32,710 nucleotides of DNA, taken from IMG/VR virus record IMGVR_UViG_3300046049_000003, positions 1 to 32,710 of that record. The stretch is one strand, 5' to 3'. Of this stretch, positions 1,031 through 32,710 are shown in pieces. Below the pieces are notes generated by a model that worked only from the letters and a program-made list of their open reading frames with translations, did not search any database and was not told where the DNA came from. Position 1 is the first letter of the stretch. Each line of letters opens with the position of its first letter. Source of the stretch: a virus. Lineage: Duplodnaviria > Caudoviricetes. A program made the position numbers and the translations under genes.

Positions 1031-1211
1031 CTGTGGTCCAGGGTCCATTATACACTGCCTACGGACCCTACCTGTCAATCACCCACTCCCCACTTATAAC
1101 TTATGCAGTGACTAATTTGCTACAATAGGTTTATGTACGGGGGCTACACACTGGGTTAACAGAGACTAAACGTCCTCTGTAAAGGACAGTCTCTGGAGGC
1201 AGTGTCATGGA
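1028..1211. promoter_or_regulatory. Divergent promoter region; both leaders carry the conserved motif
   Basis: Minus: TATA 1094-1099, AGGCAGTGTAT 1050-1060, GACCACAGATG 1028-1038. Plus: TTTATG 1130-1135, hairpin 1160-1195, AGGCAGTGTCATG 1197-1209. Confidence 0.7.
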
Positions 1212-1683
1212 GGACAGTGAAAAACCGCTCTCCCGTGAGGAACTTACAGCAGTTATAGAGGTACAGAGAGACCGGATAGAGGAGCTAGAGGGGAGGATAG
1301 AGCGTCTGGAGCAGACCCTCTCTGACGTAGAGGGACAGGTAGACCGGACTGATGAGATAGTCAAACAGCTAAATGAGGGGTCAATAGGGGGTAAGGCAGG
1401 AGTGGACCTGCTTACGGAGCTAGCTCCTGCTCCCACTGGGGGTCTGACGGAGGCTAGAGCCAGAAACATATACAAGAATATAGTGGAGGACTACAGAGTG
1501 GAGGGGTGGATAAAGACCTCCACGGTCAAAAAGTGGTTAGACCTGGAGCATAGTACACAGGCTCACAGAGCTATGGAGACACTCCAGCAGATGTGTGAGG
1601 ATGGTATTCTCCTGGGTCACATAGACATTAAAAAGAGACGACAGCAGAGATGTATCAGGATGACGGGGACAAAAGACGACTGA
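1207..1683 (+). CDS. Coiled-coil plus probable winged-helix DNA-binding protein
   Basis: N-terminal heptad repeats (IEELEGRIERLEQTL); C-terminal helix-helix-wing pattern (TSTVKKWLDL..QAHRAMETL..IDIKKRRQQRCIRM). Confidence 0.65.
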   Translation: MEDSEKPLSREELTAVIEVQRDRIEELEGRIERLEQTLSDVEGQVDRTDEIVKQLNEGSIGGKAGVDLLTELAPAPTGGLTEARARNIYKNIVEDYRVEGWIKTSTVKKWLDLEHSTQAHRAMETLQQMCEDGILLGHIDIKKRRQQRCIRMTGTKDD

Positions 1684-4004: not shown

Positions 4005-4641
4005 CCTGCTCACTCTCCTGGAGACGGGAGACTACATCCTGGTAGTCCTCTCCGTTGTGCTTACGGACCTCTGCCAGAGCTAGGAGCAGGGAGTCACAGA
4101 AAACTCCCTTTTTCTCCAGAGCCTCCAGGACATCTGCAGGGTCAGGAGTCAGTCCAGGACCCCCACGTTTTACTTTGAGGTCCAGGTCTCCTCTCTGGTT
4201 TGCCACCTTGATGTAGGTGGTAGGTTTGGCAGTGACCTCTACCACCCAGTCCTGGATGTCAGTGATGGACAGGTCCTCCCGTCCTATCTGCTCCAGACCC
4301 CACCTGACTGCCTCCTCTGCATTGAAAGACGCTTTACGGGAATGGTTACTCCCCAGGAGAGCGTCCTCCAGGTCTCCCGTGGACATGATGGGGACAGAGA
4401 GGTCCACCTGGACCTCCTGCTCCACGGTCAGGTCATAGTTCCTGATGGTACCTCCCCGCTCCCGGACCTCCGTGGTCTGGAGAGCAGGTCCCTCTGCTCT
4501 GATGACCAGAGGAGAGTCAAAAACGACTCCCTCCAGCGTCTCCTCAAAGCCAGGCTCCTCCTGGCTCTCTTTCTCTTTCTCTGCCTCTGCCTCTGCCTCA
4601 CTGCCATGCTCCCCGTCAGGGGAGTCCGTCTCTGCAGACAT
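3997..4641 (-). CDS. Hypothetical protein
   Basis: 214-aa acidic ORF; GACCACAG-ATG start; long structured leader. Confidence 0.8.
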   Translation of the reverse strand: MSAETDSPDGEHGSEAEAEAEKEKESQEEPGFEETLEGVVFDSPLVIRAEGPALQTTEVRERGGTIRNYDLTVEQEVQVDLSVPIMSTGDLEDALLGSNHSRKASFNAEEAVRWGLEQIGREDLSITDIQDWVVEVTAKPTTYIKVANQRGDLDLKVKRGGPGLTPDPADVLEALEKKGVFCDSLLLALAEVRKHNGEDYQDVVSRLQESEQDD

Positions 4642-4790
4642 CTGTGGTCTGTCCTCCAGTGGTAGTCCACTAGCCAGGAGACCGCTCTGACACTGCCTGG
4701 GTCCCCACAGGCCCTCTCCTGGGTATGCTCCAGGACTCCCGTGAGACGGGAGCGGTCTAGCTCCAGAGGGTAAACCGCATACTGCTATAT

Positions 4791-5255: not shown

Positions 5256-5648
5256 TTACCGCTCCTCACTCCATCCACAGTGGGGACAGGACCCCCATGC
5301 CTGACCTGCCATAGTCTGGACTGACGTATGGACTCCAGGCAGTCCACAGGCGGGACACTCCATCTCTGGGTCTGCCACAGTGTAGCTCCCCTGGACGCCC
5401 TCTGTGGGGACTCCTCTCATGTCTGACTCCAGCAGGACTCCCCCGTCATCCAGGAGCCTGGGGAGCCTGTGCGCCGGGATGTTAGCCCAGTGACCTGGCT
5501 CACTGTAATACTGTCCCTCTACAGGATCATGCACACAGGTCTCGCTGGAGTCCCTCTGGAGTGGTTCCTGATCTGGGACCGGAGTGTGATCCATCTGCTC
5601 TCTGTAAAACTGGTCTACCTCGCCGTTTTGCGTTTTGTCTGGCGTCAT
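5256..5648 (-). CDS. CPxCG Zn-ribbon protein, first gene of an operon
   Basis: CPACG...CPHCG at the C-terminus; TATA at 5715-5720; both leader boxes present. Confidence 0.8.
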   Translation of the reverse strand: MTPDKTQNGEVDQFYREQMDHTPVPDQEPLQRDSSETCVHDPVEGQYYSEPGHWANIPAHRLPRLLDDGGVLLESDMRGVPTEGVQGSYTVADPEMECPACGLPGVHTSVQTMAGQAWGSCPHCGWSEER

Positions 5649-5739
5649 CTGTGGTCTCCGGGAGTGTATGACACTGCCATTTGACTCCCTATGTCCTATG
5701 ACACAGGCATGGCTAATAAATCCTCTGCCATTTGTCCAG

Positions 5740-6152
5740 AGGGTTAGGTAACACCTGATGTTAGGATAGTGTTGACCTACAGCCTTACAGGACCTTAACG
5801 TGAGATGTTAATATGAGGGGGGTAGAAACCCGGACCGCCAGACGGCGGGATGTTAAGAAAACGTTAGGCGTTAAGGGAGAAAAACGGAGGGGGTGTGGAG
5901 GTCCTTACCTCCCTTTTGAGGGGGTAAGGTCCGGTCCCATGTCTGCTCGTAGGGGCTTAGTAGGTAGTGTAGTAGCAGGGGGTAATAACTCTTTCTCTGA
6001 CAGGTTAACATCCTGTGTTAGGATAGTGTAAAGCTCTTGTAGGTAGTCTGACTGGAACCCCGTCCAGCTTAACACCACCACCGTTTTTCCGGGTTAACGC
6101 TTAACGTTTTCTTAACATCCTGCCTTACAACTTCTTAACACAGAATGTTAAG
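5740..6152. other. Candidate replication origin (repeat-rich intergenic region)
   Basis: 27-bp inverted repeat 5848-5874/6094-6120 (1 mismatch); direct repeat TGTTAGGATAGTGT at 5759 and 6016; many GTTAA/TTAAC/GTTAG units; lower GC. Confidence 0.55.
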
Positions 6153-6620: not shown

Positions 6621-8557
6621 CAGATAGCGTCCCCCCGTTTTCTCCCCTCTCTACGGACTGTGCTAATTTGCCTTCCCAGTGACTCTGGAGTCCCCAGGTC
6701 AATATTAGCCTGCAATTGCCCTCCTGACTCCTGCCATGTTACTCTCTCTGCCGGTCTGTAGAGGTCCCAGTCTGCTACGTAGTAAGATTTTCCTGGCTCT
6801 ACTGGCGGTCCTGCAACTGTTATCCCACCCTCCAGACGGTCTAACGTGGACTTTTCCCTGATGAGAGCCTCTGCCACACCATCAGCGTCAGTGACGGAGG
6901 TGATCTGGGGGTCAGTTTTCACATAACTGATTACCGTATTATTGAGACGGGAGACCTCCCCGTCATTTGTCTTTATGATCACTGGTCTGCTGCCGTCATC
7001 TCTCCGTTTACCCCGGACTTTGACTCTGTTGGCATACCCCTTTACGTCTATTTTCCGCTTGTGATCTAGGACATCCCAGTCCTGGGTAGCCTGCTTACCC
7101 CTGGGGTAGGACTCTACCTCTAGTCCACCGGCAGTGTGGTCAATTGAAAACCGCATATTTGCTAACTCATGCAGCGTCTGGAGGTTTTCCAGGTGTGTAC
7201 CATTAAGCTCCCGCTCTGATATGAGACGCTTATCGTTAGCGTCTATGTAGACTTTGAATACAGACGTTTTCTGACCCTCTGTCCCCTGGGTGGGGGTAGA
7301 GTCCGTCTGACTCCCGTACCTGGAGAGGGTCAATTTAGGAGTGATGACCGCTCCATCATTAGCGAACGTCTTTGTCAGTGTCTCTGTATTAGTAGCAGAG
7401 ACGGTCTCCGTCCCCCCGGAGGTGTCCAGGTCTACACTGATAGCCTGGTTGTTGCTGGTATCATCCATGTTGGTCTGGACCTCTACGTCAGTGACATTGA
7501 GTCCGGTATCTACCCCATCAAACTCCACAGTAAACTCATGGGGGAGAGCCTCCGGTCCTGATAGTTGGTCATTAGCGTCTAAAGAGTTAGGCCAATTGTA
7601 GAGGAAACGATCATCATAGAGAGTTACCAGGTCAAAATGCTGTCCCTTTGAGCCAGTCTCCTCTACAGCTAGCTCCACAGTATGGGTCCCTGGCTCCAGG
7701 TCCCCCCCGTCATACCCCACATTATACCCGTAGTATGGCATGGGCCTACTCCAGTCCAGAAAGGCACTAATGACTTTATTAGCCTCATCTGCCACATTAC
7801 CGTCTATCTTGAATTGCAGTCTGGGTCCTCTGCCTGACTGATTATTAGGTATCCTGTCCCGGACTGTCAGAGCTACATGCTCCTCCGGGATTTTATAGTC
7901 AATATCAAACTCATATCTGGCAAAGCTCCCCTCCCGTTTGAGGCTGATACCAGTCCCGTCTGTGAATAAGTCCTCCGTCCCCTCATTTGAGTCCCATACT
8001 TTCTCTATACCGCTCTGGTCATCCCAGTATCTGGCGTCTCTGGTAAAGGCAGACTGGAGGAGGTTAATCTGGTCTCCTGTGACCTCTATGGGGTCCGTGG
8101 GGTCCACTGTGAGAGCGTTTTCAAAGGAGCTAGTCGAGGAGCAGGAGAGGACCAGCCTGTCTGTAGCGAACGGGTCAACTGTCGGCTTATCCACAGTGGC
8201 GGAGAAATTGGTGTAGTTATTCCAGTAGTCCTCAATAGCCTCTGCAGCAGAGGTATTGGTGTATGTCACTGCAGCCTCTCCATCTATCAGGACTTTTCCT
8301 CTCCCCCTGCCTGATAGAGTGGTCTTTGAGCCTGCCTCTCGGCTATTGATGACCTCCAGGTAGCCTTTGAATTTCCTGGCTCCACCCTCCTGGATGTCTA
8401 CCTCTGAAAATCTCCACTCCTCCAGGTCCAGGTTATACGGGATATTCACTTTCCAGTCAGAAAGAGCGGTATGCTCCCGTACAATCTGGAGACCTGACTG
8501 GTCATCCAGGCTGTAAGTGTTACCATCCAGGTCAGTCAGAGTGATTGTATATACCAT
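6620..8557 (-). CDS. Minor tail / baseplate-hub (Tal-like) protein with inserted beta-sandwich domains
   Basis: 645 aa; hub-like ends (LSGRG..L, YANRVKVRG, ERVTW); internal LEPGTHTVEL..FDLVTL CBM-like segment; position in the tail module. Confidence 0.7.
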   Translation of the reverse strand: MVYTITLTDLDGNTYSLDDQSGLQIVREHTALSDWKVNIPYNLDLEEWRFSEVDIQEGGARKFKGYLEVINSREAGSKTTLSGRGRGKVLIDGEAAVTYTNTSAAEAIEDYWNNYTNFSATVDKPTVDPFATDRLVLSCSSTSSFENALTVDPTDPIEVTGDQINLLQSAFTRDARYWDDQSGIEKVWDSNEGTEDLFTDGTGISLKREGSFARYEFDIDYKIPEEHVALTVRDRIPNNQSGRGPRLQFKIDGNVADEANKVISAFLDWSRPMPYYGYNVGYDGGDLEPGTHTVELAVEETGSKGQHFDLVTLYDDRFLYNWPNSLDANDQLSGPEALPHEFTVEFDGVDTGLNVTDVEVQTNMDDTSNNQAISVDLDTSGGTETVSATNTETLTKTFANDGAVITPKLTLSRYGSQTDSTPTQGTEGQKTSVFKVYIDANDKRLISERELNGTHLENLQTLHELANMRFSIDHTAGGLEVESYPRGKQATQDWDVLDHKRKIDVKGYANRVKVRGKRRDDGSRPVIIKTNDGEVSRLNNTVISYVKTDPQITSVTDADGVAEALIREKSTLDRLEGGITVAGPPVEPGKSYYVADWDLYRPAERVTWQESGGQLQANIDLGTPESLGRQISTVRREGRKRGDAI

Positions 8558-8561
8558 CTGT

Positions 8562-9548
8562 CTAACTACTGGTGTTAAGTGCCACTTTTACTTTGGGTCC
8601 GTATATCTCCACCCATTCCTCTGCATTAACATACTCCCCGTCTCTGGCATTACCTGGAGAGTCATGTATCTCTATGCCAGCTAGTGAGGTCCCCACGTCC
8701 CCGTCATCTCCTCCGCTCCCGTCATCTGGGGTGAGTCTGATTGTATCACTGATGTTAGACCCATCCACCTCCACGTTTAGGACCCCCTCCTCATACCCAT
8801 CAGAGTTAGCCCTAATCTCATACTGTCCATTACGGAGGCTCACAGTGGCCTGTCCAGTGTCTGTAGAGGTGTCTGTTACTTTGTCTCCTACGTCATTGTA
8901 AACGGAGAGATAGACCGTCTGGGAGTCTATCAAAGCTCCCTGGTCATCCTCTATGTCCAGACTGACATCATACGTAGTGATTGTAAAGTTGGGGAGGGTC
9001 CCCGGAGTGTCATCAACACTGTGGGGCCTGGCGTCAGGAGCAGTCTCATCAGCAGGCTCATCCTCTGGGTCCCCCACGAAAGGTCCGTCTCCAGCGTCAG
9101 GGTCCGTATAGGTAGCAGTGTCAGTGTCTATGAGAAAGGCATTTTCTACGTCAGTGAGGGAGGCGTAGTCAGAGTGAGGGGCTAAGACCAGGATGTCCAG
9201 TGAGAGGACTGCCTCCTGGACTGGCTTAACCGTCTCATCAGTCCCTCCTACCAGCAATCCCCAGACTCCTTTAGCTCCCTCACTGCTGCTCCCTGGGACT
9301 ATCTCCAGGACCAAGCTCTGGCGGTCATGACGCTCCCTATACCAGGGAGTCTGGTCCAGGTACGTCCCGTGGTCTACCCTCTGAGTGTATTCCAGGAGGT
9401 CTCTGATGTCCTGGTAGTGTGTGAGGTAGTTATCCACCCTGGGAGTCCACTTGAAGGTCATTGAGACGGTCTGACCCTGTGTGACCACTGGATGAGAGCC
9501 TACCAGACCAGCAGTCTCCTTACCGTTTATAGTCCATCTCTTAGTCAT
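8562..9548 (-). CDS. Minor tail protein (Dit-like N-domain, acidic linker, PEGA/Ig-like C-domain)
   Basis: N-terminal 140 aa paralogous to 9558-9995; C-terminal TDTGQATVSLRNGQYEIRANSDGY. Confidence 0.65.
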   Translation of the reverse strand: MTKRWTINGKETAGLVGSHPVVTQGQTVSMTFKWTPRVDNYLTHYQDIRDLLEYTQRVDHGTYLDQTPWYRERHDRQSLVLEIVPGSSSEGAKGVWGLLVGGTDETVKPVQEAVLSLDILVLAPHSDYASLTDVENAFLIDTDTATYTDPDAGDGPFVGDPEDEPADETAPDARPHSVDDTPGTLPNFTITTYDVSLDIEDDQGALIDSQTVYLSVYNDVGDKVTDTSTDTGQATVSLRNGQYEIRANSDGYEEGVLNVEVDGSNISDTIRLTPDDGSGGDDGDVGTSLAGIEIHDSPGNARDGEYVNAEEWVEIYGPKVKVALNTSS

Positions 9549-9557
9549 GAGTATAAG

Positions 9558-9995
9558 TTACGACCTACTAACCTTAAATTGGTCCTCTACATCAGAGGCA
9601 GTAGCATAGTCTGACTGGTTAGCCAGGATAAACACTGTCAGATTTAATCTGCAGAGGCTCTGTGGGTGAGAGGTCTCATCAGAGCCTCCGGTCAGGACCC
9701 CCCAGACCCCTTTGGCTGCAGTGGAGTCCGGTCCGGGGGTTATCTCCAGGAGGAGAGAGTCCCCAGTATGCTGTTCAATATACCAGGGGAGACCCTCACT
9801 ATTCGTCCCCGTAGCCACCGCTCCAGCTTTCTCCATGAGGTCCCTAAGCGCCTGGTAGCGGGAGATATGGGCCCCGTCCCCACGGGGGGTAAAGTAAAAT
9901 TGAAAGTTAACGGACTGTCCGTGGATGATCTGGGGGTGGCTGTTCACCAGTCCGTCTGTCGTGGTTCCATTAACGGTCCACCTGGTGTCTGGCAT
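9558..9995 (-). CDS. Minor tail protein (Dit-like)
   Basis: Paralog of the adjacent gene; lies between the TMP and the hub. Confidence 0.65.
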   Translation of the reverse strand: MPDTRWTVNGTTTDGLVNSHPQIIHGQSVNFQFYFTPRGDGAHISRYQALRDLMEKAGAVATGTNSEGLPWYIEQHTGDSLLLEITPGPDSTAAKGVWGVLTGGSDETSHPQSLCRLNLTVFILANQSDYATASDVEDQFKVSRS

Positions 9996-10037
9996 GGGAG
10001 AAAATACCTCCGCCAGCAGGTTAGCAGTTTGGGAGAG

Positions 10038-10139
10038 CTAGCTGGATGTATTGAGGCTATTGCCCTCTCCAGTGGTAGCCAGGACCTCCCCGTCACCAGA
10101 AAGGTAAACGTCTGACCCATCTATGTCAGAGTCCGTCAT
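10038..10139 (-). CDS. Possible 33-aa acidic microprotein (MTDSDIDGSDVYLSGDGEVLATTGEGNSLNTSS)
   Basis: Hand translation; fills the gap 6 nt after the upstream stop. Confidence 0.45.
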   Translation of the reverse strand: MTDSDIDGSDVYLSGDGEVLATTGEGNSLNTSS

Positions 10140-10145
10140 GTCTAG

Positions 10146-10553
10146 CTAGCTGTTCCAGTCAGGGTCATATATAATGACGGGGTTATTGTCGTCTGCCAGA
10201 TGGAAACTGGACTCCCGGAGAGGGAGTCCGTCCCCTATGATCTCCTCTATGACCTCCTGTATTTCCTTTTCATTATCATTTTCTACGTCATCTCTCACAC
10301 TGTCAGAGGAGTCTCCACCCCCACAACCCTGGGGACTGACACAGATGAGGGACCCCTGGTATGTCTTAGGCGCTCTCTGTGCCTCTATCCAGACTACTGC
10401 ATTGAGAAACTCTCCCTGTATAGCAGGCAGTGTCCCGGAGATGAAACTGGGGCTAAAAATAAACTCTCCAGTGTATTGTGGTAATGTTCCAGAGGTTAGG
10501 CTATTGCTGCCTATGAAATCCCCGGACTCACTTACAGAGCCTGTGATGACCAT
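10146..10553 (-). CDS. Hypothetical tail-region protein
   Basis: 135 aa; internal repeat SGTLPQYTGEF/SGTLPAIQGEF. Confidence 0.65.
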   Translation of the reverse strand: MVITGSVSESGDFIGSNSLTSGTLPQYTGEFIFSPSFISGTLPAIQGEFLNAVVWIEAQRAPKTYQGSLICVSPQGCGGGDSSDSVRDDVENDNEKEIQEVIEEIIGDGLPLRESSFHLADDNNPVIIYDPDWNS

Positions 10554-10563
10554 GCTCTACCCC

Positions 10564-11382
10564 TTATGAGTGTTGGAAAAAGGCAGGCTGGTTATAGAAA
10601 TTCCCATCATATTTGTCAAAGTATGTAAAGAGTTTACCAGTCCCAGTATCTACCTCATCCAAATGCTCCCGGTCCTGGTAGTTGGGGTCATACCCCCATC
10701 CCTCAAACGTCCCCAGAGGGACCCCATCACTTAGGTTGCTGACATTCCATGACTGCACTACGTTTCTCTCCGTCCCTTTCCACTCCCCGGAGGATGTCAC
10801 ACCCCCAAACATGTATGGACCAATTGGACCATTTTGGGAAGGGGCATCATTGTAACTCTGGATTCCACAGGTAGCCCCAAACGTCCCCCCGTCGTTCCAG
10901 TTTGTGCCACCCAGATAGAGAGCGTACCTATGCGCTCCATACTCTGAATTGTAGTCCCAGGCTTTGTCCACAATTGAGGTCCCCAAAGCACAGTAACTAT
11001 AGCGGTCGTTTGTGTTACTATCTGGATAGGATGTAGAAACACCCCATATCCAGGAGAAATCAGTATTAGAGTAGTAGTGATAATTAACATTTTGAGTCTG
11101 ATACATTGTACTTTGCAGGTAATCCCCCCCATATGAGTCTTTGAAACTCGCTCCGTTTTCATCCATGCTCTCGTATCTATACCCAATTCCCCCCCTCGCA
11201 TTTCCATACCCATAGTCCCAGGTAAACGCAAAGTCCTCATCATCCACTCCTATGGCAAAACCCTCTCCGTCTGCACTGTCAAAAGTGTCCACTATGGACA
11301 GGTTCCCAGGGGTGGAGAGTGTGCTCTCTGCCTGGGTCATGAAACCACTCCAGTCTGACCCTGTTGTTGATGAGTATGCCAT
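10564..11382 (-). CDS. Putative receptor-binding/tail accessory protein (AT-richer)
   Basis: 272 aa, rich in Y/G/S/N, beta-type; atypical composition. Confidence 0.6.
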   Translation of the reverse strand: MAYSSTTGSDWSGFMTQAESTLSTPGNLSIVDTFDSADGEGFAIGVDDEDFAFTWDYGYGNARGGIGYRYESMDENGASFKDSYGGDYLQSTMYQTQNVNYHYYSNTDFSWIWGVSTSYPDSNTNDRYSYCALGTSIVDKAWDYNSEYGAHRYALYLGGTNWNDGGTFGATCGIQSYNDAPSQNGPIGPYMFGGVTSSGEWKGTERNVVQSWNVSNLSDGVPLGTFEGWGYDPNYQDREHLDEVDTGTGKLFTYFDKYDGNFYNQPAFFQHS

Positions 11383-11386
11383 TGAA

Positions 11387-12229
11387 TCAGTCCTTAAACA
11401 GGCAATTGTTATCCTGCGGAATTAAAGTTATGTATGTGCCAGAGGCTGTCATGGTCCCCTCATGTCCCATCCTGGGTCCTTTCTGACTGACATCCACCCA
11501 TTTATCATGCTCTCCTGCAGTCCCTACATAGTCATTTGTCAGAGTCCAGGAGTCGTCCCGCTCATACGTGTTTTCTGGGAGTCTCTGACCCTCCAGCCTG
11601 CTACTGATGTCCTGGTCATAGTCATTCCCTGATGTAGTTCCCCAGGTCTGGTCATACCAGGAGCCACCCAACTTTAGAAAGGCACTATACATAGCGGGGT
11701 TGTAACCGGTCTCAAATGATGTATAGTCATTACCCTCACTGTCAGTACACTGCACCTCCTCACTAAATGACTGATAGTTAGGACTGGTCCCCAGGTTTGC
11801 TAGCCCCATCTGGATAGTATTCCAGGAGGCATAAGGGTGAATGACTATCCACCCACTCCCCCTCCATATACTGGCTGGAGTGTTTGAATCATACTGCAGG
11901 CTGGTAGAATCTGACCAGACGCTCCCTGGAAAGCTAGGTTGGTTACACTCATCTGCATTGTAGCTATCTGGATAAACCCAGTCCTGAACCTTATCCCCAG
12001 TGTCAGGGTCATCCTCCACCCAGTTTAGTCCTGCAGTGACGGTCATGGAGGTGTAATCAGTGTTAAACTCAAATTTGTAGGAGTCCTCCCCGCTCCCGTC
12101 TATGACAAAGTAAGAGGGGTCTGCTCCTATCTGGTTAGTGTTTGTGGAGAAATTACTGGCTGCTACCATCCCATTTAGTATTTCTCCAGCTAGCCCCCCT
12201 GATACTGTGTCATGGACCTCTGTAGCCAT
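11387..12229 (-). CDS. Putative tail accessory/receptor-binding protein
   Basis: 280 aa, rich in S/T/D/N/Y/W; directly after the TMP. Confidence 0.6.
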   Translation of the reverse strand: MATEVHDTVSGGLAGEILNGMVAASNFSTNTNQIGADPSYFVIDGSGEDSYKFEFNTDYTSMTVTAGLNWVEDDPDTGDKVQDWVYPDSYNADECNQPSFPGSVWSDSTSLQYDSNTPASIWRGSGWIVIHPYASWNTIQMGLANLGTSPNYQSFSEEVQCTDSEGNDYTSFETGYNPAMYSAFLKLGGSWYDQTWGTTSGNDYDQDISSRLEGQRLPENTYERDDSWTLTNDYVGTAGEHDKWVDVSQKGPRMGHEGTMTASGTYITLIPQDNNCLFKD

Positions 12230-12266
12230 AGAGGAGAGACGGACTCACTCTACTTATTTCTGGAGG

Positions 12267-14579
12267 TCAGGATGAGACCCCAAACAGCCTTTCTATCTCC
12301 CTAATCTGCTCATCCTGAAGGTCCTCCATCATGGACTTAACCTCCTCTCTAGCCTCATCAGTCAGTCCACCCAGGACCTTAACCGCTCCTGCCATTATCC
12401 TGGCGTCTATCTGGACTGTCTGACTGTCTCCATCTCCCTCGCCAGAGGGACTAGCTGGAGCAGGGGTGGGGACGGGAGTGTCAGGCTGCTCTGGGTCAGG
12501 ACTCATTAACTCTGCTGTCTGCCGCGCCTCCGTCGCCACTACGTCCCGCTCCTGCTCCATCCCGTCTGCTATTGTGTGCATAAATGCTGGACCAGTGGAT
12601 GACAGGTCAGAGAGTGGCCCCTCCTTTGCGTCTGAAAACGGGAGCTTATCCCGGACTCCACCTACTACGTCATCTACTGTTCCCATCAGGTCTGGGATTT
12701 TGTCCTTAATCCCCTCTTTGATGGTCCTGATGAAAGCTGGACCAGTGGCAGACAGGTCAGAGAGTGGACCCTCTTTGGCGTCTGAAAACGGGAGTTTATC
12801 CCTGATGGAGCCAGCCATGTCATCTACTACTCCTCCTACGTCTGGGATTTTGTCCCTGATACCCTCTGCAAAGCTGCTAAGTAGCTCTTTGCCTCTCTCC
12901 CTCATCTCCCCTACAAAGTCCAGTTTATCCAGGATAGCCTCTTTAGCAGCCTCGACTGGCTGATCTGGTGCCCATCCTAGCAGGATGTCCTGGAGAGCCT
13001 GGACCCCCTGGTCAAATTTCTCCTCTCCGGTGTTCCAGAGGTCTGTCACTGCATTTATCGCCTCATCCCTGTACTGCCAGATGAGTCCAGGCAGGGTCCA
13101 GTTTAGGATTACCTGCTGGACAGTCTCTACCCCCTGGTCAAATAACTCCTCTCCAGTGTCCCAGAGGTCCGTCACTGCAGCAATTGCCTCATCCCGCTTT
13201 TGCCAGAGGATACCTGGGAGCGTAAAGTCCAGGATGAGGGTCTTGAGAGTCTCTACACCCTGGCTGAAAAGTTCCTTTCCGGTTTCAAACAGGCTTGTGA
13301 TGACCTCTATAGCCTGCTCCTTTTTGCGGTTAAGTATCTCTGCCGGATTGAACCCTGTAAATACGCCAGTGATGAACTCAAATGCCCCAGTTACAAACCC
13401 TATCAGACTGTCCAGTAGGCCCTTTAGGAAATTGATAGCTGCCTTTGTTTTCCCTCTGATGTCTCCCCAGTTATTTTTCCAGGCTAGCGCTAGGCCACCT
13501 ATGACTGCCGAGATAGCCAGGATAGCGGGGAGGAGTGGACCCATAGCGGTCACAACGCCAGTGATGGATGGGATGAGAGCAGACGTGTTGACGGTGGCTA
13601 CCAGGCTTTGAGCAGACCCCAGACCCATCAGAGCGGGAGCCAGGGAGTCAATAGGACCCATGACCCCTGCTGCCTTAAGCTTGAACTCATCAAACTTTTG
13701 CCGTAATTCGTCAGTGGTGGTGACGGACTCATTAGCAGCCTCTGCATACTCCTCCGTCATCCCACTGCTGTCCTCCAGAGCGTCCCCCTGGTCCTCTATG
13801 GACTCCTGGCTGATACCCAGGACCTCTGCAAACTCCTCCTGGCTCTCCGCTCCAGAGTCTGCAGCCTCACGGAGTCTCTGCATAGCCTCTCTCCCCTGGA
13901 TACCCTCCTCCTCCATAGCTGCTATCATGGCTGCAGAGTCCTCTGTGGAAATACCTGCCTCCCTCATCTGGGGTCCAAACCGCTCCAGAAGTCCGGTAAA
14001 GTCCTCTAGCTCTGCAGAGGTCTCCTGCTGGATAAAGGTAAATGTGTCAGTGTGCTCACCAGCGTCCTCTATATCTTCCCCCATAGCCCGGAGAGCAGGA
14101 CCCACCTCATTAGTTATCTCCTCTGCAGACCTCCCCGTGGCGTCTGCCAGTGTGTCCATCTCTGTAGCCAGGGTTTTCATCTGCTCCTCTGACTCTACCC
14201 CCTCCTGTGCCAGTGCGTTCATGGTTGCAGTGGCGTCCTCCATAGGGAACGTGGCGTTAGAGATAGACGTAGCTAGATCATTAGCCTCATCAGAGGTTAT
14301 CCCCATATTGACGGAGACTCTCCCTAGCTCCTCTCTGGTAGATTTGGTGTCCTGGAGGGTTTTCTCCATAGCCCCACCTACGGAGGCTATTGTGGCTCCT
14401 GCAGCTACCCCTGCTTTGTCCACCTGGATGAGAGACTGCTCCATCTCCCCCATCTGACCTGCAGATGTCTCTGCAGAATTGCCTGCCTCCTCCATAGACT
14501 GTCCTGCTCCCTCCATCCCCTGCTGAAAGTCCTGGTCCCCCTCTAACATCATCTCCGCCAGTATTTCCCCGCTACTCAT
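12267..14579 (-). CDS. Tail tape measure protein
   Basis: 770 aa helical; LALAWKNNWGDIR motif, Trp-periodic repeats, LPFSDAKEGPLSDL motifs; follows the chaperone pair. Confidence 0.93.
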   Translation of the reverse strand: MSSGEILAEMMLEGDQDFQQGMEGAGQSMEEAGNSAETSAGQMGEMEQSLIQVDKAGVAAGATIASVGGAMEKTLQDTKSTREELGRVSVNMGITSDEANDLATSISNATFPMEDATATMNALAQEGVESEEQMKTLATEMDTLADATGRSAEEITNEVGPALRAMGEDIEDAGEHTDTFTFIQQETSAELEDFTGLLERFGPQMREAGISTEDSAAMIAAMEEEGIQGREAMQRLREAADSGAESQEEFAEVLGISQESIEDQGDALEDSSGMTEEYAEAANESVTTTDELRQKFDEFKLKAAGVMGPIDSLAPALMGLGSAQSLVATVNTSALIPSITGVVTAMGPLLPAILAISAVIGGLALAWKNNWGDIRGKTKAAINFLKGLLDSLIGFVTGAFEFITGVFTGFNPAEILNRKKEQAIEVITSLFETGKELFSQGVETLKTLILDFTLPGILWQKRDEAIAAVTDLWDTGEELFDQGVETVQQVILNWTLPGLIWQYRDEAINAVTDLWNTGEEKFDQGVQALQDILLGWAPDQPVEAAKEAILDKLDFVGEMRERGKELLSSFAEGIRDKIPDVGGVVDDMAGSIRDKLPFSDAKEGPLSDLSATGPAFIRTIKEGIKDKIPDLMGTVDDVVGGVRDKLPFSDAKEGPLSDLSSTGPAFMHTIADGMEQERDVVATEARQTAELMSPDPEQPDTPVPTPAPASPSGEGDGDSQTVQIDARIMAGAVKVLGGLTDEAREEVKSMMEDLQDEQIREIERLFGVSS
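12570..12870 (-). repeat. Tandem 150-bp (50-aa) duplication in the TMP
   Basis: GACAGGTCAGAGAGTGG at 12601 and 12751; RDKLPFSDAKEGPLSDLS twice. Confidence 0.9.
12975..13330 (-). repeat. About three 126-bp (42-aa) repeats in the TMP
   Basis: CCAGAGGTCYGTCACTGCA at 13035 and 13161; RDEAI.AVTDLW.TGEE.FDQGV units. Confidence 0.85.
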
Positions 14580-16914: not shown

Positions 16915-17060
16915 GTGACTCTCCTCCAGAGACGGACTGGAGCTAGCAGCAGTGACCTCACAGCCAGGAGGAGTGTGTAGATGACCAGTCCCACCCAGAT
17001 GACCAGGATGTCCGTGAGAGTTAGCTCAGTGTATCTCTGACCGTCTGTGTTTTGCGTCAT
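16911..17060 (-). CDS. 49-aa membrane microprotein (MTQNTDGQ...)
   Basis: One TM segment with a basic tail; ATGA overlaps on both sides. Confidence 0.65.
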   Translation of the reverse strand: MTQNTDGQRYTELTLTDILVIWVGLVIYTLLLAVRSLLLAPVRLWRRVT

Positions 17061-21745: not shown

Positions 21746-22051
21746 CTACCTATTCCTCCACATGAGGTCAGAGATGTCTCCCACGGTCTCCAGAGTGTCA
21801 TACTCTGCCTGTCCGTTTTCCCAGTCCCAAAAGTGGACCTCATCTGCCTGATGGTAGTCCTCCCCATCAATAGTAGCGGGAGTCCAGATATGCTCCAGAC
21901 TGCTCTCCCCTTTCTCCCAGATGGAGATATGACCCCCTCCGTCTGGGTTGTAGACCCACTCCACTACCCAGGTGGAGATGGACTTTCTCTGATACTCCAT
22001 ACCGTCATCCAGGTCCCCGTTAACAGGGGTCCGGTTTTCAGTGGTCATCAT
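21746..22051 (-). CDS. Moron-like hypothetical protein (start MMTTENR)
   Basis: Start overlaps the conserved AGGCAGTGTCATGATGACCAC motif; inserted between portal and protease. Confidence 0.7.
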   Translation of the reverse strand: MMTTENRTPVNGDLDDGMEYQRKSISTWVVEWVYNPDGGGHISIWEKGESSLEHIWTPATIDGEDYHQADEVHFWDWENGQAEYDTLETVGDISDLMWRNR

Positions 22052-22109
22052 GACACTGCCTCTACTACCCTCTACAGCACCCACTGACAAAAGTGTTGTG
22101 GGTGGTGTG

Positions 22110-24680: not shown

Positions 24681-26207
24681 TTAAGTCTCCAGGGACTTTA
24701 CTCTGGGTCCCCAGTGGGTCTCATCTGCAGCCAGGACAGCCAGTCCAATTGACCAGAAAGCCTCCCCGTGGCCCTCATCAGTCTCCACTGCCTCCAGATC
24801 ATTACTGACCGCCAGGACCTGCCTCCGCTGGCGGTCCTCCGGGAACAGGATGAGTCTCTCTGCTCCTGCATAGACATCAAACTTAGTTGCTATTTTGTCA
24901 TTAGTCCCGCCAGACAGAGACACACCATCCATCTCATCTGGGAGGTCCCCCATCTCATCCATACTTTCAAACTCTCCCCTGGTGTTATCATACTTTATGG
25001 TCTTAACCCCAAAGCAGTCTATGGCCCTCTCACAGTATTTTGCCTGCCTGGTGTAGTCCCAGGAGTCCATCCATTTAGAGTGGACCTGGACCATCTTTCT
25101 CACGGAGTCCTCCCCCTCCTCTGATAGGACTGCAAAGACCGCCAGGTGGGAGGGATGTCTCTTTTTCCCTATGTCCATGCCTCCCACATACCCGTCTATA
25201 GTCTGGGGAGCGGGACTGTCCCAGTTAGACTGGAGTTTTGTCTCCTCCCCCAGGTCCTGGAGTCCGTCCTGGAGCAGAGGGGCTAGCTCCTCCTCCCGGA
25301 AATAGCCTATCTCCCTGCTCATTGGTTCACACATATACTCCTGATTGAATAGCTTAGGGCCTATCTCCTCCTTTTCCTGCATGAGCCAGTCATAGGACCG
25401 CCAGTTATCCCAGATGACATCCGGGGGGTCATGGCTCTTAATTGCAGGGTCTATCCTGTGAGCATACTCCTCCATGAGGTCCTGGTCAAAAACAAAGTCC
25501 TCCTCCGTCTGGGGGGTGGTCACAATATGTAGCTGGTCATCCTCATGGGTGGGTATGCCTTTGACAGTGGTCTTAAAGATGTAGTTGATTTTCAGGACCT
25601 TGGTAGGGTTTAGCTGTCCTGCTCCTCCCTTGCCGGCGGGGTCCTGGAAGGGGTCATCTACATACACTACGTCCCCGTGGATACCCCTGGAGTGGCTCAT
25701 CATACCGTGAGGAGAGAGGGTCTGATGGTGGTCTCCGTCATCCCAGGTCCACTTACCCTTGGTCTCTGCCGTGGGTTTGCAGTCCTCCAGTGAATTGAAC
25801 CAGGGGTTTCTCTGTATCAGAGCGGAGATGGAGTCCTTTGCCTCCCCTATATGGTAGCCTGCTGATTTTTCCTTATACGAGAAATAGTGACCCTCTACAC
25901 CTGCCTGTCCGTCAGTCCAGTCCATCTCCTCCATCCCATCAAACCTAGCTCTCCAGACGGTCCAGAGCCAGTGTGCATAGAGACCTGTGCTTTTCCAGTG
26001 GTTACGGGGACCCACATGACAGGACCTGCTATTGGAACCCAGGAACCTGGCTCTGGTCAGGAGCCACTCACCTCTGACAAAGTTCTCAAATGAGTCACTG
26101 AATACCAGGTCAACAAAGGTAGGAAAGTCCTGGTAGGTAGCCTGGTAGAGAGCTAGGAGCGTCTGGTCATCTAGCTGCTCCTCTGGGTCATCTGGGAGGT
26201 CCTGCAT
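24681..26207 (-). CDS. terL: Terminase large subunit
   Basis: Walker A GPRNHWKST, Walker B RGIHGDVVYVDDP, FNQEYMCEP, nuclease motif GGMDIG. Confidence 0.95.
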   Translation of the reverse strand: MQDLPDDPEEQLDDQTLLALYQATYQDFPTFVDLVFSDSFENFVRGEWLLTRARFLGSNSRSCHVGPRNHWKSTGLYAHWLWTVWRARFDGMEEMDWTDGQAGVEGHYFSYKEKSAGYHIGEAKDSISALIQRNPWFNSLEDCKPTAETKGKWTWDDGDHHQTLSPHGMMSHSRGIHGDVVYVDDPFQDPAGKGGAGQLNPTKVLKINYIFKTTVKGIPTHEDDQLHIVTTPQTEEDFVFDQDLMEEYAHRIDPAIKSHDPPDVIWDNWRSYDWLMQEKEEIGPKLFNQEYMCEPMSREIGYFREEELAPLLQDGLQDLGEETKLQSNWDSPAPQTIDGYVGGMDIGKKRHPSHLAVFAVLSEEGEDSVRKMVQVHSKWMDSWDYTRQAKYCERAIDCFGVKTIKYDNTRGEFESMDEMGDLPDEMDGVSLSGGTNDKIATKFDVYAGAERLILFPEDRQRRQVLAVSNDLEAVETDEGHGEAFWSIGLAVLAADETHWGPRVKSLET

Positions 26208-27621: not shown

Positions 27622-28608
27622 CTACCAGTCAATACTGATTACATCCCGTAGCTCTGACTGACGGTCTCTGACCTTTTGACGGTCCTCCTCCATCTGGTCC
27701 TCATCTACCTCATCAAGAATTGCCCCCTCTATCATGTCCTCAAACTCCTGCCTGTGATACTCCTTTAGAGCGTTTAGCTCCACGTTTACGTCCTGTCCCC
27801 CACTGACATGAGTCATGAAGCGGTCCCTGATGGTCCGGTCTTTGTCAGAGGAGGATGGGGTGGGGTTTTCTGGGAGGTCATACTCCTGGATATGCTCCAC
27901 GTTTAGAGCTACCCTCTCAAAATTCAGACTGGGGGACCCATCTATGTTCTCCAGGACCCACCCATCCCAGGGACTGATGTCGTAATATTTCCGGTCAGAG
28001 GAGTCTGCCTTTTCGTCCCGGATTGGTAGTCCGTAGTGAGCCATAGTAGTCTGGACCGCCACTGGAGCATGGTAGCCACTGGGGTTAAAGTCCCCAAAGT
28101 AGAGGATTTTGACATCCTCCCCATCCTGGAGTTTTTCCCCAAGCCTCTGAGTGGCTCTGTAGATTTTAGAGTCGCTCCAGTCTCCTCTGGTAGCCTCCAG
28201 TCTGACATTATATTCCCTGCAGATGTTATCAAAGACAGACTCCAGGGAGGCTTTCTCTAACCAGACCTCTACATAGGTATCCTGGTTATTCCAGAAATTC
28301 TCATAATAGCTATTCCAGATACCCTGGACCATATCCTCTACAAAGTCCTCCGGGGATTCCCACCCCTCTGACACTCTGGTAGTAGCAGACCTGGATGTAT
28401 CTATGATCTGTGAGGGGTCAATGTAGCCTGCTCTCCGTCCCTTTTTGACTGCTCTGGCTACCTCCTCGTAATCGTATTGATGTCCTCTCGCCTCCAGAGC
28501 ATAGTAGAGGTCCCTGGAGGTCCTCTTTTCTCCGTTTTCCAGGAGGTCCTGGATGAGGCTAACTAGCTCTCTATACTTTGACCGTGGACTCCAGTCACTG
28601 TCTCTCAT
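27622..28608 (-). CDS. Topoisomerase VI-A/Spo11-like winged-helix plus TOPRIM protein
   Basis: TSRDLYYAL, VEVWLEK, ILYFGDFNPSG, ERVALN, ELNAL motifs. Confidence 0.8.
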   Translation of the reverse strand: MRDSDWSPRSKYRELVSLIQDLLENGEKRTSRDLYYALEARGHQYDYEEVARAVKKGRRAGYIDPSQIIDTSRSATTRVSEGWESPEDFVEDMVQGIWNSYYENFWNNQDTYVEVWLEKASLESVFDNICREYNVRLEATRGDWSDSKIYRATQRLGEKLQDGEDVKILYFGDFNPSGYHAPVAVQTTMAHYGLPIRDEKADSSDRKYYDISPWDGWVLENIDGSPSLNFERVALNVEHIQEYDLPENPTPSSSDKDRTIRDRFMTHVSGGQDVNVELNALKEYHRQEFEDMIEGAILDEVDEDQMEEDRQKVRDRQSELRDVISIDW

Positions 28609-28673
28609 CTGTGGTCATGGGATGACACTGCCTGCTATCCCTATATCACTATCAGATGGGGGAGTGGTATAAA
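28606..28673 (-). promoter_or_regulatory. Promoter and leader with both conserved boxes
   Basis: TTTATA 28668-28673, AGGCAGTGTCAT 28622-28633, GACCACAGATG 28606-28616. Confidence 0.75.
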
Positions 28674-28696
28674 CTTACCCCAACCCCAGAAAGTAG

Positions 28697-28771
28697 CAGG
28701 CAGGAGGGTATTTGAAACCCTGACCTGGAGGGTAGAAGCCTCACGCTCTATCCTGACTAAGCTACCTGCCT
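28697..28771 (-). tRNA. tRNA-Arg (anticodon UCU) with non-canonical features
   Basis: Cloverleaf: AGGCAGG TA GCTT AGTCAGGATA GAGC G TGAGG CTTCTAC CCTCC AGGTC AGGGT TTCAAAT ACCCT CCTGCCT G. Confidence 0.85.
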
Positions 28772-28840
28772 ACGAAAGCTGTGGTACCATCCCTGTACCT
28801 CTGACAGTGGTGGGATGGTGGTGGGGGTAAGGGGTGGGGT

Positions 28841-28894
28841 CAGGGGAGTGACTCTGTAGGCAGTGTCATGGACCACAGATGTCCTGCTCCCCTG
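28841..28894 (-). ncRNA. Candidate trans-acting antisense sRNA (three-way junction)
   Basis: CAGGGGAG/CTCCCCTG closing stem; two hairpins complementary to the leader boxes; TTTTATTA at 28919-28926 (about -25 to -32). Confidence 0.7.
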
Positions 28895-28936
28895 CAGGTG
28901 CATATAGTGAGGAGGGATTAATAAAACTGGCTCCAT

Positions 28937-28984
28937 CCCACTGACCCGCCACTGACATGGCCCCCGCCAGAGCGTCAGTATGGG
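28937..28984 (-). ncRNA. Second candidate small structured RNA
   Basis: CCCAtACTGAC/GTCAGTGGG closing stem with two inner hairpins; TATATTAA at 29003-29010. Confidence 0.4.
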
Positions 28985-29016
28985 TGTATCTCTGACTTAA
29001 ACTTAATATATCTCTG

Positions 29017-29103
29017 TCAGTGATACCAGAGTATCAATCCTGTCCATCCCAGGATGAGGAGCAGGGACAGAGTGAACACTATCCAGAGCAGCATACGGTC
29101 CAT
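29017..29103 (-). CDS. 28-aa single-TM peptide (MDRMLLWIVFTLSLLLILGWTGLILWYH)
   Basis: Hand translation; starts 2 nt after the upstream stop. Confidence 0.6.
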   Translation of the reverse strand: MDRMLLWIVFTLSLLLILGWTGLILWYH

Positions 29104-29105
29104 CC

Positions 29106-29573
29106 TCATGGGATGAGACCCATGAGCCAGGCTGCAGCCAGGACCAGCGTCAGGAGCGTCAGGAGGACTGTGAGGTAGCCTCTAGCTCTGCTGGTCCAGT
29201 GGTCAGAGTTGATGAGTGCTGCCAGATGACGGAGCCAGGCTAGGATAGCTCCGTGAGCAGGCAGGATGTGGTCCTGTGTCTGGATGACCTCCATCTGCAG
29301 TAACTGTCTCCTGGCGTCATAGTCAGACTGTATGATGACGGGTCTGCTATGCCTGTTACGGACCCAGACCTTTACCGGGACGCTCCTGATGTAGCCCCTC
29401 TCCAGAGCCTCATCCAGGCTCATCTCCTCCTCCTGCATGGAGTCCCAGTCCACGTAGAGGGTTTCTGACCCTACGTCATGATCCAGGGTCTGGCTGCTCC
29501 AGAGTGTCTGCTGCTCCCCTGTGGGAGTGTCTGACTGGCGGTCCTCCATCTCTTTGCGGTCTCTTAGGCTCAT
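29106..29573 (-). CDS. Hypothetical protein with C-terminal membrane anchor (start MSLRDRK)
   Basis: Start reassigned because a Zn-finger gene occupies 29578-29721. Confidence 0.7.
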   Translation of the reverse strand: MSLRDRKEMEDRQSDTPTGEQQTLWSSQTLDHDVGSETLYVDWDSMQEEEMSLDEALERGYIRSVPVKVWVRNRHSRPVIIQSDYDARRQLLQMEVIQTQDHILPAHGAILAWLRHLAALINSDHWTSRARGYLTVLLTLLTLVLAAAWLMGLIP

Positions 29574-29577
29574 ATTC

Positions 29578-29721
29578 CTAGCTCCTCTCCTCCCGGAGTT
29601 TACGCTCACTATGCACATGTCCATTTGTGCATTGGTAGAATGACTTTCCTGCCTCCTCAAAGAAGGGATTAGTCCGGTCCCCACAGTGAGGACAGTAGCG
29701 CCAGTCCGGGATGTCACTCAT
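29578..29721 (-). CDS. 47-aa CPxCG Zn-finger microprotein (MSDIPDWRYCPHCGDRTNPFFEEAGKSFYQCTNGHVHSERKLREERS)
   Basis: Hand translation; CPHCG...CTNGH; overlaps the upstream stop. Confidence 0.75.
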   Translation of the reverse strand: MSDIPDWRYCPHCGDRTNPFFEEAGKSFYQCTNGHVHSERKLREERS

Positions 29722-30484
29722 GGTCTGTCTCCTGGGACTGTATCTTATCCCGTTCCATCTCCGTCACTGCATTACGGACTGCAGCATGACGCTTAGTGTG
29801 CTTTTTCAGGGTGAAGAGGGTCAGGGTCCGGTCCATCTCCAGGAGGTCATCCACATCCCGCTTTGCCTGGAGCCAGTCAAACCGCTCCGTAGCCTCATCA
29901 TAGTTGGCTATGAGGCAGGACAGGACCGCTTTCTGGTCTACGGACTCCATGCAGAGTTTTAGGTCCAGGGTGGCCTGCTGCTCATCCTGCTCTGCTTTCA
30001 GTCCACGGAGGTCTGGCTCATCCATGTCCTGATGACCCCAGTAGGAGCGGTCATTTTGTGCGCCATGACGCTCTCTGACCTCATCCTCCAGGTCTTTGAT
30101 CCGCTCTGCAGTCTCTGGGTAGTGTGCCTCCAGGATGAGTAGCTCCACCTGGCGATTACCAAAGGCTCCACAGAGACACTCCCCGGAGTGATGGTAGGTC
30201 TGTTTAACGGGGGACCGGGGAAGGTCATGCTCCTCCATGTACTCTCTGCAGTCCTCCTCTGACCAGTGGAGGATGGGACTGTGCCAGACGTATTGTTTTG
30301 CCTCCTCCACTTTCTGGTCAGAGGTAGTCCTCATCCGCCGGTCAGACTCATCCTGACGTATGCCAGTGTCGATATGGAGGACTTTCTCCGTCTCTCCGCT
30401 CTCCATGCAGTAGTGGGTAGATACCAGGGAGTCATGCCCTCCACTAAACAGGCAGACGTGTTTAGGAGCATACTCCTCCGTCAT
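29714..30484 (-). pseudogene. PAPS-reductase-family (PP-loop) gene, in frame but apparently missing its central part
   Basis: SGGHDS PP-loop; HIDTGI fused directly to GIRQDESDRR; SPILHWS and SGECLCGAF motifs. Confidence 0.65.
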
Positions 30485-31221
30485 TTGAGCCACTCCCAGG
30501 GGGAGCGTCCCTCCTTGTATGCCTGCCTGACTTTCTGCTCTTTGCCTTCCCGTCTCTGCTTTACACTGTCAGAGGGGAGAGCTATCCCCATCTGATTCCA
30601 TTTGCGTCTGGCTGCAGTGATGGACTCCGGGGTGGTGGTCCGATACTCCCAGTCCTTGGGGACTCCGTAGACCTGACCCCCTGGGTCTCCGGTCCATCCT
30701 CCCCAGATGAGTCTCCACTGCAGGATGAGGTCTTTGTCAGAGTCCCTGGTCTCCGGGACATTGAGGAGGACCCATAACACCTGGTCCTCAAAGCCTACGG
30801 GAAGGTCCTGGATGTCTGCTCCCCGCTCCTCTAACTGCTCCTCCTGGCGGTCCCTGATGTAGGACTCCCACTCCTCCTCATCCTCCCACTCATTCCGTAT
30901 GTAGAGGTCCAGGTCTGCTGGTCCAAATTGGTCAGTCCGCTCTACGTCTCGTCTAGCTCTGACTATGCTGGCGTCAGACCGCTCCCCACTCCGGTCCTCC
31001 GGGATTGTGATGACCAGGTGGTTTGGGTTTTCTGATACTATATCCCACCCGTCATAGGTCAGATGGTAGTAGAGAGTCAGGAGGTCATCATGACGGAGGG
31101 TGTATGAGTGGTTTTTGCAGAGTCGCTCCACTCTGTAGTTTAGCGTCCTCTGCTCTGGCTTTTCCGTGGGTATTTTCATGCTTGTACCGTCATCCTCTGT
31201 GAATGTGTCCAGTGTGGTCAT
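30481..31221 (-). CDS. Hypothetical protein with two tandem homologous domains
   Basis: TLRHDDLL..GW..SDASIVRARR versus ETRDSDKDL..GW..TPESITAARR. Confidence 0.8.
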   Translation of the reverse strand: MTTLDTFTEDDGTSMKIPTEKPEQRTLNYRVERLCKNHSYTLRHDDLLTLYYHLTYDGWDIVSENPNHLVITIPEDRSGERSDASIVRARRDVERTDQFGPADLDLYIRNEWEDEEEWESYIRDRQEEQLEERGADIQDLPVGFEDQVLWVLLNVPETRDSDKDLILQWRLIWGGWTGDPGGQVYGVPKDWEYRTTTPESITAARRKWNQMGIALPSDSVKQRREGKEQKVRQAYKEGRSPWEWLK

Positions 31222-32370: not shown

Positions 32371-32650
32371 GTGGTAGTCTCTGATGTTTTCCGTTATGCT
32401 CTGCAGTCTCCAGAGCCTCTAAATTTTCCGGGGAGTTATTCCAGAGGTCAGTATCCTTATGATGGACCTCCCTGGGGTCCTCCTCAAAACGGATATGGTC
32501 TATCTTTCCATGTGCGTATGCTACCAGCCTCTGGAGAGTGACACAGTATTTCTCCCCATCCTCGTAGTGGTAGAGCCTCCAGTAGCGGTCTGGACCTACC
32601 TCTATGGAGGGGTGGAGTGTCTGGGTTTTACCACTCTCCCAGGATGTCAT
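32363..32650 (-). CDS. HNH endonuclease-like protein (HNH_3 type)
   Basis: QRLVAYAHG..EVHHKDTDLWNNSPENLE..AEH; its 5' part is repeated at 1-93. Confidence 0.85.
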   Translation of the reverse strand: MTSWESGKTQTLHPSIEVGPDRYWRLYHYEDGEKYCVTLQRLVAYAHGKIDHIRFEEDPREVHHKDTDLWNNSPENLEALETAEHNGKHQRLPHE

Positions 32651-32710
32651 GTTCCCTCTGCGTCCTCCAGGAGGTCCTCTAACTTCCAGTCCTCATCCTC
32701 TGGGAGAGCT
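32646..32710. repeat. Second copy of 511-575 (2 mismatches), joined directly to the HNH start
   Basis: Direct comparison of the two segments. Confidence 0.95.

Follow-up and report, generated by a model that had tools for sequence, protein, structure and literature searches.

A candidate trans-acting antisense RNA against the starts of seven reading frames in a haloarchaeal tailed virus

When a motif that precedes start codons in a viral genome recurs once more, inverted and in an intergenic position, the question arises whether this copy encodes an RNA directed against the leaders that it mirrors. The question is posed here by the minus strand of a metagenomic viral sequence of 32,710 nucleotides (hereafter the window, meaning that whole stretch), where a non-coding element at positions 28841-28895 is the complement of sequence around the starts of seven reading frames. 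An original prediction, made from the letters alone, viewed this element, whose sequence and coordinates it gave correctly, as a multi-target antisense RNA comparable to the C4 RNA of phages P1 and P7 and to the CI RNA of P4.

Judging by its gene content (acidic proteins, terminase, portal, protease, capsid, tape measure and an archaeal Holliday junction resolvase), the window is a near-complete haloarchaeal tailed virus. Its capsid protein is 24-27% identical to those of HHTV-2, HCTV-2 and HSTV-1, and close strains are present in three halite metagenome runs, two of which are referred to below as X2 and X3. The public runs listed for the virus include no RNA run, which does not bear on its expression. 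The ends of the window overlap in two ways (1-109 with 32558-32666, and 511-575 with 32646-32710), which suggests, at the sequence level, that the genome is circular and that its assembly combines variants that have gene 90-515 and variants that lack it. The gap between the late and early regions (5844-6124) contains a 53-nt inverted repeat of 85% identity, possibly an origin or a large RNA, and is resembled by GTTAAC/GTTAGG-rich DNA near 13340-13700 of the relative G002.

What, then, does the element look like? On the minus strand, the TATA-like box TTTTATTA (28926-28919) is followed by 24 nt and by the anticipated 8-bp closing stem (28894-28887 paired with 28848-28841). From the TTAT to the first base of the 5' stem, as picked by eye, there are 29-30 nt in nine of ten units and 32 nt in the tenth; this spacing fits haloarchaeal promoter geometry. 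The start of the stem 29 nt after TTAT suggests a primary 5' end rather than one made by RNase P. A sigma-70 promoter and terminator scan, whose bacterial models do not fit archaea, returned no match. The best predicted fold is not the pair of hairpins initially proposed: it is a single long irregular hairpin of -26.0 kcal/mol (z -2.9; 2 of 200 shuffled sequences fold as well), with the two-hairpin shape appearing as a suboptimal fold at -23.7, that is, 2.3 kcal/mol above the best. Arm 1 of the window element is predicted to be unpaired only to 0.24.

Behind the element lies a feature that had been overlooked, a tRNA-Arg(UCU), which is likely to be co-transcribed with the RNA upstream of it; the cognate codon AGA accounts for 80 of the 295 arginine codons in the 12 window genes counted. 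Since the promoter in the window is also needed for the tRNA, the promoter alone is no evidence for a small RNA. None of the differences listed for runs X2 and X3 falls within 28904-28937, as compared with 11 positions in 28938-29025. The contigs of both runs stop on either side of the arms, leaving 28820-28893 uncovered, and such breaks are common in both. A loose end at 28872 in run X2 was considered as a rearrangement and is better explained by the leader of gene 1207, which matches over about 24 nt. The tRNA-Arg(UCU) of run X2 carries two changes by which, as read by hand, the top anticodon-stem pair and a usual loop base are seemingly restored, and the DNA downstream of it differs from the window.

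The motif shared by the element and the leaders is far too frequent for its length. The 11-nt box GACCACAGATG (box 1), which ends in ATG, occurs six times against 0.09 expected (100 order-3 Markov genomes, maximum 1): five sense copies end in the ATG of 1030, 2427, 4641, 5648 and 28608, each of them exactly complementary to arm 1 as had been claimed, and one is inverted, at 28871-28881. Similarly, GGCAGTGTCA is present in seven copies against 0.24 expected from order-3 Markov genomes, with the 8-mer GACCACAG alone showing no enrichment (9 observed, 3.7 expected). Arm 2 had been credited with complementarity to six leaders; the match is complete (12 of 12) only at 1207, 22051 and 28608, being 11 of 12 at 4641 and 5648 and 9 of 12 at 1030 (11 nt counting the upstream extension). 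Box 2 stands ahead of box 1 in four window leaders, with gaps of 5, 11, 13 and 37 nt, and at 1207 and 22051 it carries the AUG itself; start codons are covered by both arms, in different targets. In all six sense non-coding copies, box 1 ends in the start codon.

The leaders have structure of their own. A stem surrounds box 2 in each of the five leaders that have box 2 ahead of box 1, and its letters differ from leader to leader. The stems score -13.7, -13.5, -8.9, -6.3 and -3.6 (null median -1.4 and -0.8), four being stronger than about 90% of random places and that of 28608 lying within chance; they may just protect the messages. Box 2 itself is unpaired only to 0.27-0.78 in longer predicted folds. 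Pieces of box 2, 6-7 nt long, also occur upstream of the start site at the 5648, 2427 and 1207 promoters of the window.

The set of targets is less uniform than the phrase "all early units" of the original prediction implied: 22051 lies between the portal and head protease genes, and no TATA box is seen in the 110 nt before 22051 or before 4641. Nor does the presence of a protein-sized reading frame separate the sense copies from the inverted one as had been proposed, the ORF at 1030 having just 53 residues and no acidic character (D+E 0.06) and a 21-codon plus-strand ORF following the inverted copy. The only target downstream of the element is 28608, behind its own TATA box; its leader (28606-28633) has no listed difference in run X3, against 8 listed in the flanks. 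This topoisomerase VI-A-like gene (27622-28608), with its own boxed leader, is absent from that place in the relatives G002 and L008, so that the regulon seems to have gained this cassette; in run X3 the gene is present but the DNA upstream of it is different.

Table. Positions of the candidate RNA, its surroundings and its putative target leaders (window coordinates unless a genome is named)
Feature	Position	Strand	Remarks
TATA-like box of candidate RNA / pre-tRNA unit	28919-28926	-	TTTTATTA; TTAT 29 nt ahead of first stem base in 3/3 viruses
Candidate small antisense RNA, about 55 nt, with 8-bp closing stem from predicted start site	28841-28895	-	fold prediction, detector, syntenic copies
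Arm 1, complement of box 1 and AUG	28871-28881	-	11 consecutive bases identical in 3/3 viruses
Arm 2, complement of box 2	28858-28870	-	mostly in predicted terminal loop, mean unpaired 0.71; varies between viruses
Spacer between RNA and tRNA, second predicted hairpin at about 28786-28819	28772-28840	-	fold prediction
tRNA-Arg(UCU)	28696-28771	-	69 nt past the stem of the element; also in run X2; absent from G002 and L008
Target leader of ORF 1030: box 2 within 5' stem, followed by box 1-AUG	1028-1069	-
Target: box 2 with AUG of gene 1207	1197-1211	+	15-nt exact complement; start continues likewise in run X2
Gene 1207: coiled coil and predicted winged-helix protein, divergent from early genes	1207-1683	+	target in window and G002; look-alike target in HHTV-1
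Target: box 1-AUG of gene 2427, no box 2	2424-2437	-
Target leader of gene 4641: box 2 (4688-4698) in stem, box 1-AUG (4639-4649) 37 nt on	4637-4698	-
Target leader of gene 5648: box 2 in stem, box 1-AUG	5646-5678	-
Target: box 2 with AUG of small ORF between portal and head protease	22049-22061	-
Target leader of gene 28608 (topoisomerase VI-A-like, phrog_6247): box 2 and box 1-AUG	28606-28633	-
Inverted element copies	G002 25244-25319; L008 1846-1921		syntenic with window element
HHTV-1 (L201, NC_021322.1): TATA-led structured element; leaders	34283-34410; 23959, 35081, 36155, 37721, 40358, 48874

Further evidence comes from comparison with other viruses. Two true relatives were found, L008 (11,770 bases) and the syntenic G002 (33,358 bases), both about 60% identical to the window at the protein level (capsid and terminase of G002, 61% each). 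G002 encodes at 7558-12972 a tail protein of 1,804 residues with eight repeats of about 103 residues, and relative to its homologue in G002 the PAPS-reductase-like gene of the window (29714-30493) seems to lack its middle part.

In both relatives, the element has the homologue of ORF 29106-29717 on one side and the small terminase gene on the other; it is on the same strand as terminase and has no tRNA with it. Its locus, strand and TATA distance are the same in all three viruses. The original prediction had named, as an outcome that would speak against it, relatives that keep the boxes and lack the inverted copy; G002 and L008 keep the copy. The closing stems are unrelated in sequence (8 bp in the window; 11 of 12 bp paired in the relatives, z -3.2), a T run follows the stem in G002 and L008, and a single irregular hairpin is predicted in all three viruses. 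The 11 bases of arm 1 are identical throughout, and arm 2 of the relatives differs from that of the window at two neighbouring bases. Both box-2 leaders of G002 (14346 and 17055) carry the change that matches arm 2 of G002, whereas all six box-2 leaders of the window keep the window type over those two bases; this co-variation, which had been suggested as a check, is a single contrast between the window and G002, L008 being close to G002 and without the early region, and the three element sequences include two that are nearly identical. Window-type box 2 has no copy in G002 or L008, and the G002 type has four copies in G002, namely the two leaders, the RNA and one coding site. Furthermore, G002 has a third arm, and the leaders of 14346 and 17208 each contain the third box that it matches: the G002 RNA is collinear, as a complement, with the three boxes of the 14346 leader (13, 12 and 10 nt), and complements box 2 at 17055 and box 3 at 17208. 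Of these genes, 17055 is the orthologue of 1207 (50% identity), 14346 has no significant alignment to window 4641, and 17208 shares with 1030 a 7-residue motif only (E 0.24).

Beyond these relatives, the exact element pattern was found in no viral contig and a relaxed pattern in G002 and L008 only. A metagenome scan with an overly loose pattern yielded 117 loci, none of them blastn-similar to the window, and a genome scan 59, none haloarchaeal by title; protein scans with TerS and 1207 reached no viral contig, and terminase scans recovered only distant loci at 30-43% identity.

Predicted pairing is stronger between cognate partners. Upon cofolding, the cognate RNA binds the leaders with -14.2 (1030), -11.3 (1207), -14.5 (14346) and -13.8 kcal/mol (17055), as compared with -2.5, -3.4, -2.4 and -1.3 kcal/mol, respectively, for the RNA of the other virus. 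The energy ranks are imperfect: among 48 in the window, 5648 is seventh and 28608 eleventh, in a ranking that is partly circular in that targets were chosen by complementarity and 1030 was added by hand, and in G002 17208 falls outside the top 11 of 46 and the box-less 19513 reaches -12.5. A sequence-blind detector ranked the element first in the window, G002 and L008, with 6, 3 and 1 start regions, respectively; 8 of 4,000 random segments reached six and 47 of 4,000 at least three, the element itself not being excluded from the draw. The same detector, tuned on the window, gave at most one target in HHTV-2, Humcor1, HCTV-2 (49,992 of 54,291 bases), HSTV-1 and L001-L007.

Taken together, the complementarity, the conservation of locus and stem, the co-variation of arm and box, and the place behind a TATA-like box make it likely, as far as sequence comparison can tell, that the element makes a stable trans-acting antisense RNA, which would pair with the viral messages and block their translation. 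Its transcription, processing, pairing and repression can be envisaged as follows. The host RNA polymerase would initiate at the first base of the stem; in the window virus, RNase P cleavage and trimming would release the RNA from the 5' portion of a pre-tRNA, and the RNA of G002 and L008 would end at the T run. The exposed arm 2 would then seed pairing on box 2, which four window leaders hold in a 5' stem, after which arm 1 would open, cover the AUG and block initiation; where box 2 carries the AUG, at 1207 and 22051, arm 2 could suffice. The duplex of RNA and leader would perhaps invite a duplex-directed RNase such as that described for phiH (PMC8707807), an activity present in haloarchaeal hosts.

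Alternatively, as the original prediction had itself named among the outcomes against it, the boxes could be bound as DNA, and here gene 1207 becomes important. The predicted fold of its C-terminal 90 residues (pLDDT 84, from 12 sequences) has as its best structural match F-112 of SSV1 (E 0.007, probability 1.0, TM 0.55/0.67; none under 0.001), and most of the matches listed are winged-helix proteins; a coiled coil precedes this domain, and the full-length model has no fold match. The family is small, with 12 representatives at E <=0.001 and 9 at 1e-10. The protein is probably, on the strength of this model, a transcription regulator, which makes it a sensible target for an RNA and also a candidate binder of the boxes. 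They could thus be asymmetric operators of the 1207 protein, akin to the mycobacteriophage stoperators mentioned in PMC3203893, with the inverted copy serving as a site for the tRNA or a late unit. In addition to the winged-helix prediction, several observations fit: the 1207-type gene has a box in its own leader in both the window and G002; operators would likewise co-vary with a protein that is 50% identical; intergenic repeats of HF2 have been interpreted as operators (PMC8707807); and two TATA-led leaders of HHTV-1 show an inverted half-site between the TATA box and the predicted start. Moreover, in G002 the anti-box-2 9-mer stands in direct repeat on either side of the TATA box of 14346 (14240-14276), in two copies that lie outside the predicted transcript and are not explained by the RNA model; the same 9-mer is also found in seven coding places of G002. 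However, operators leave unexplained that box 1 ends in a start codon in all six sense non-coding copies, that the spacing of the boxes varies and that the stems around box 2 change their letters, and why the single inverted copy is collinear, compressed and set in a conserved closing stem at a start site. Operators are an unlikely account, although the main rival to the RNA; a mixed system of operators and RNA is possible.

A second alternative gives the plus strand the active role: an RNA-binding protein would recognise the leaders, or these would just be efficient initiation signals with 5' hairpins for protection, and transcription of the inverted copy from the plus strand would yield a decoy. 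The plus strand does fold equally well (-26.6), and box 2 starts with the SD-like GAGG, but in all three viruses the one TATA-like box at a suitable distance faces the opposite direction and none was seen upstream on the plus strand, which makes the decoy improbable. It is harder still to believe that the element is what remains of an inverted duplication of an early leader, or nothing but a tRNA leader: the window element does sit in a pre-tRNA, and the copy in G002 looks like a single leader in compressed form, but the same locus is kept without a tRNA in G002 and L008, each copy matching the boxes of its own genome. Least credible of all is an eighth sense leader serving the 21-residue plus-strand gene (28879-28944), in which two changes in runs X2 and X3 are, as read by hand, a silent third position and a stop-to-stop replacement, but whose frame stops after three codons in G002 and L008 and has no promoter that could be seen.

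Returning to the antisense RNA, what could it be for? Since the RNA and its targets have the same type of promoter, a timer that works by accumulation is slightly likelier than immunity: as a delayed negative feedback, a stable RNA would accumulate and damp the winged-helix regulator together with the first genes of the early units. Of two records searched, neither matched the tyrosine integrase family (PF00589); both are rated about 40% complete, though both appear to wrap.

Whether such control is more widespread can be approached through the cultured virus HHTV-1, whose gp32 is homologous to the 1207 protein (36% over 113 residues). Behind the tail genes of HHTV-1, the detector flags 34283-34390 with four start regions, a number that 66 of 4,000 random segments reach. 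An 11-nt box has seven copies in HHTV-1 against 0.33 expected: five sense copies ahead of gp32, gp43/44, gp45, gp52 and gp55, one on the minus strand at 48874, and one inverted, in the linker behind a predicted four-way junction; gp32 ranks third of 72 in binding energy. The element has no evident sequence in common with the window RNA and overlaps the annotated gp41, which, given its doubtful composition, may not be a gene. Four leaders contain a long inverted repeat with the box as its 3' side, an arrangement compatible with RNA hairpins and with operators, and several leaders share a downstream hairpin with a conserved loop. The HHTV-1 element might be an unrelated antisense system directed against a homologous gene, a lead rather than a proof; the accessible text of PMC3950731 mentions no such element. 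Only tentatively can it be proposed that haloarchaeal tailed viruses run trans-acting small-RNA regulons in which a single stable RNA turns off a conserved winged-helix regulator along with the first genes of early units and the variable arm is a virus-specific address, an RNA immunity code, with HHTV-1 using an unrelated RNA against a homologous gene. If true, this would show how a virus without a polymerase of its own times its genes in a host with many leaderless messages, and would offer orthogonal pairs of RNA and leader for gene control in Haloferax; HHTV-1 provides the laboratory route, the principle being testable in Haloarcula hispanica.

How does the element compare with known systems? 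In the literature searched, mostly at the level of abstracts and with few subscription journals, no archaeal virus was described as having a small RNA that acts in trans on multiple targets, and the antisense control reported there for haloarchaeal viruses (phiH Tant, HF2, HFTV1) is cis-encoded. As far as the accessible text of PMC3203893 goes, the start-associated sequences of Cluster K mycobacteriophages are bacterial and have no cognate RNA gene described. The Tant transcript of phiH1 and the antisense transcripts of HFTV1 are cis counter-transcripts (PMC8707807, PMC6210493, PMC12542753) and, like the RNA proposed here, represent antisense control of early genes in haloarchaeal viruses; unlike them, the element is not encoded opposite its targets but occupies a separate intergenic locus in all three viruses and has short matches to many leaders. 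The CI RNA of the phage-plasmid P4, which causes termination, is released from between seqA and seqC of the very transcript under its control (PMC4825925). Both are short structured RNAs with bipartite leader pairing, whereas the targets here are dispersed up to 28 kb away and are centred on start codons.

The C4 RNA of P1 and P7 (PMC5320573; also cited in PMC12197685) has two pairing segments, one over the initiation region and one variable between related viruses, and the same arrangement on a bipartite target is found here in silico: a small viral RNA, one segment covering the initiation region and the other differing so that it would set specificity, with a possible RNase P step. The likeness that had been drawn to C4 and CI extends no further than the mechanism. 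C4 has three stem-loops where a single long hairpin is predicted here, and the element has its own promoter, a predicted primary 5' end, three to seven dispersed targets and an archaeal host. At the locus, the Rfam C4 model had no match with E up to 5 in the window, nor with E up to 1 in L128 and L008; lacking an Rfam match and differing in predicted fold and in layout, the element falls outside the C4 and CI families. Among archaea, sRNA162 of Methanosarcina mazei acts in trans on the message for a transcription factor, masking both its ribosome site and its start codon (PMC4152357). It is encoded by the host and has one known trans target; the viral element shares with it, in silico, the layout of a separate archaeal gene whose RNA would act in trans through short pairing over a ribosome site and start codon.
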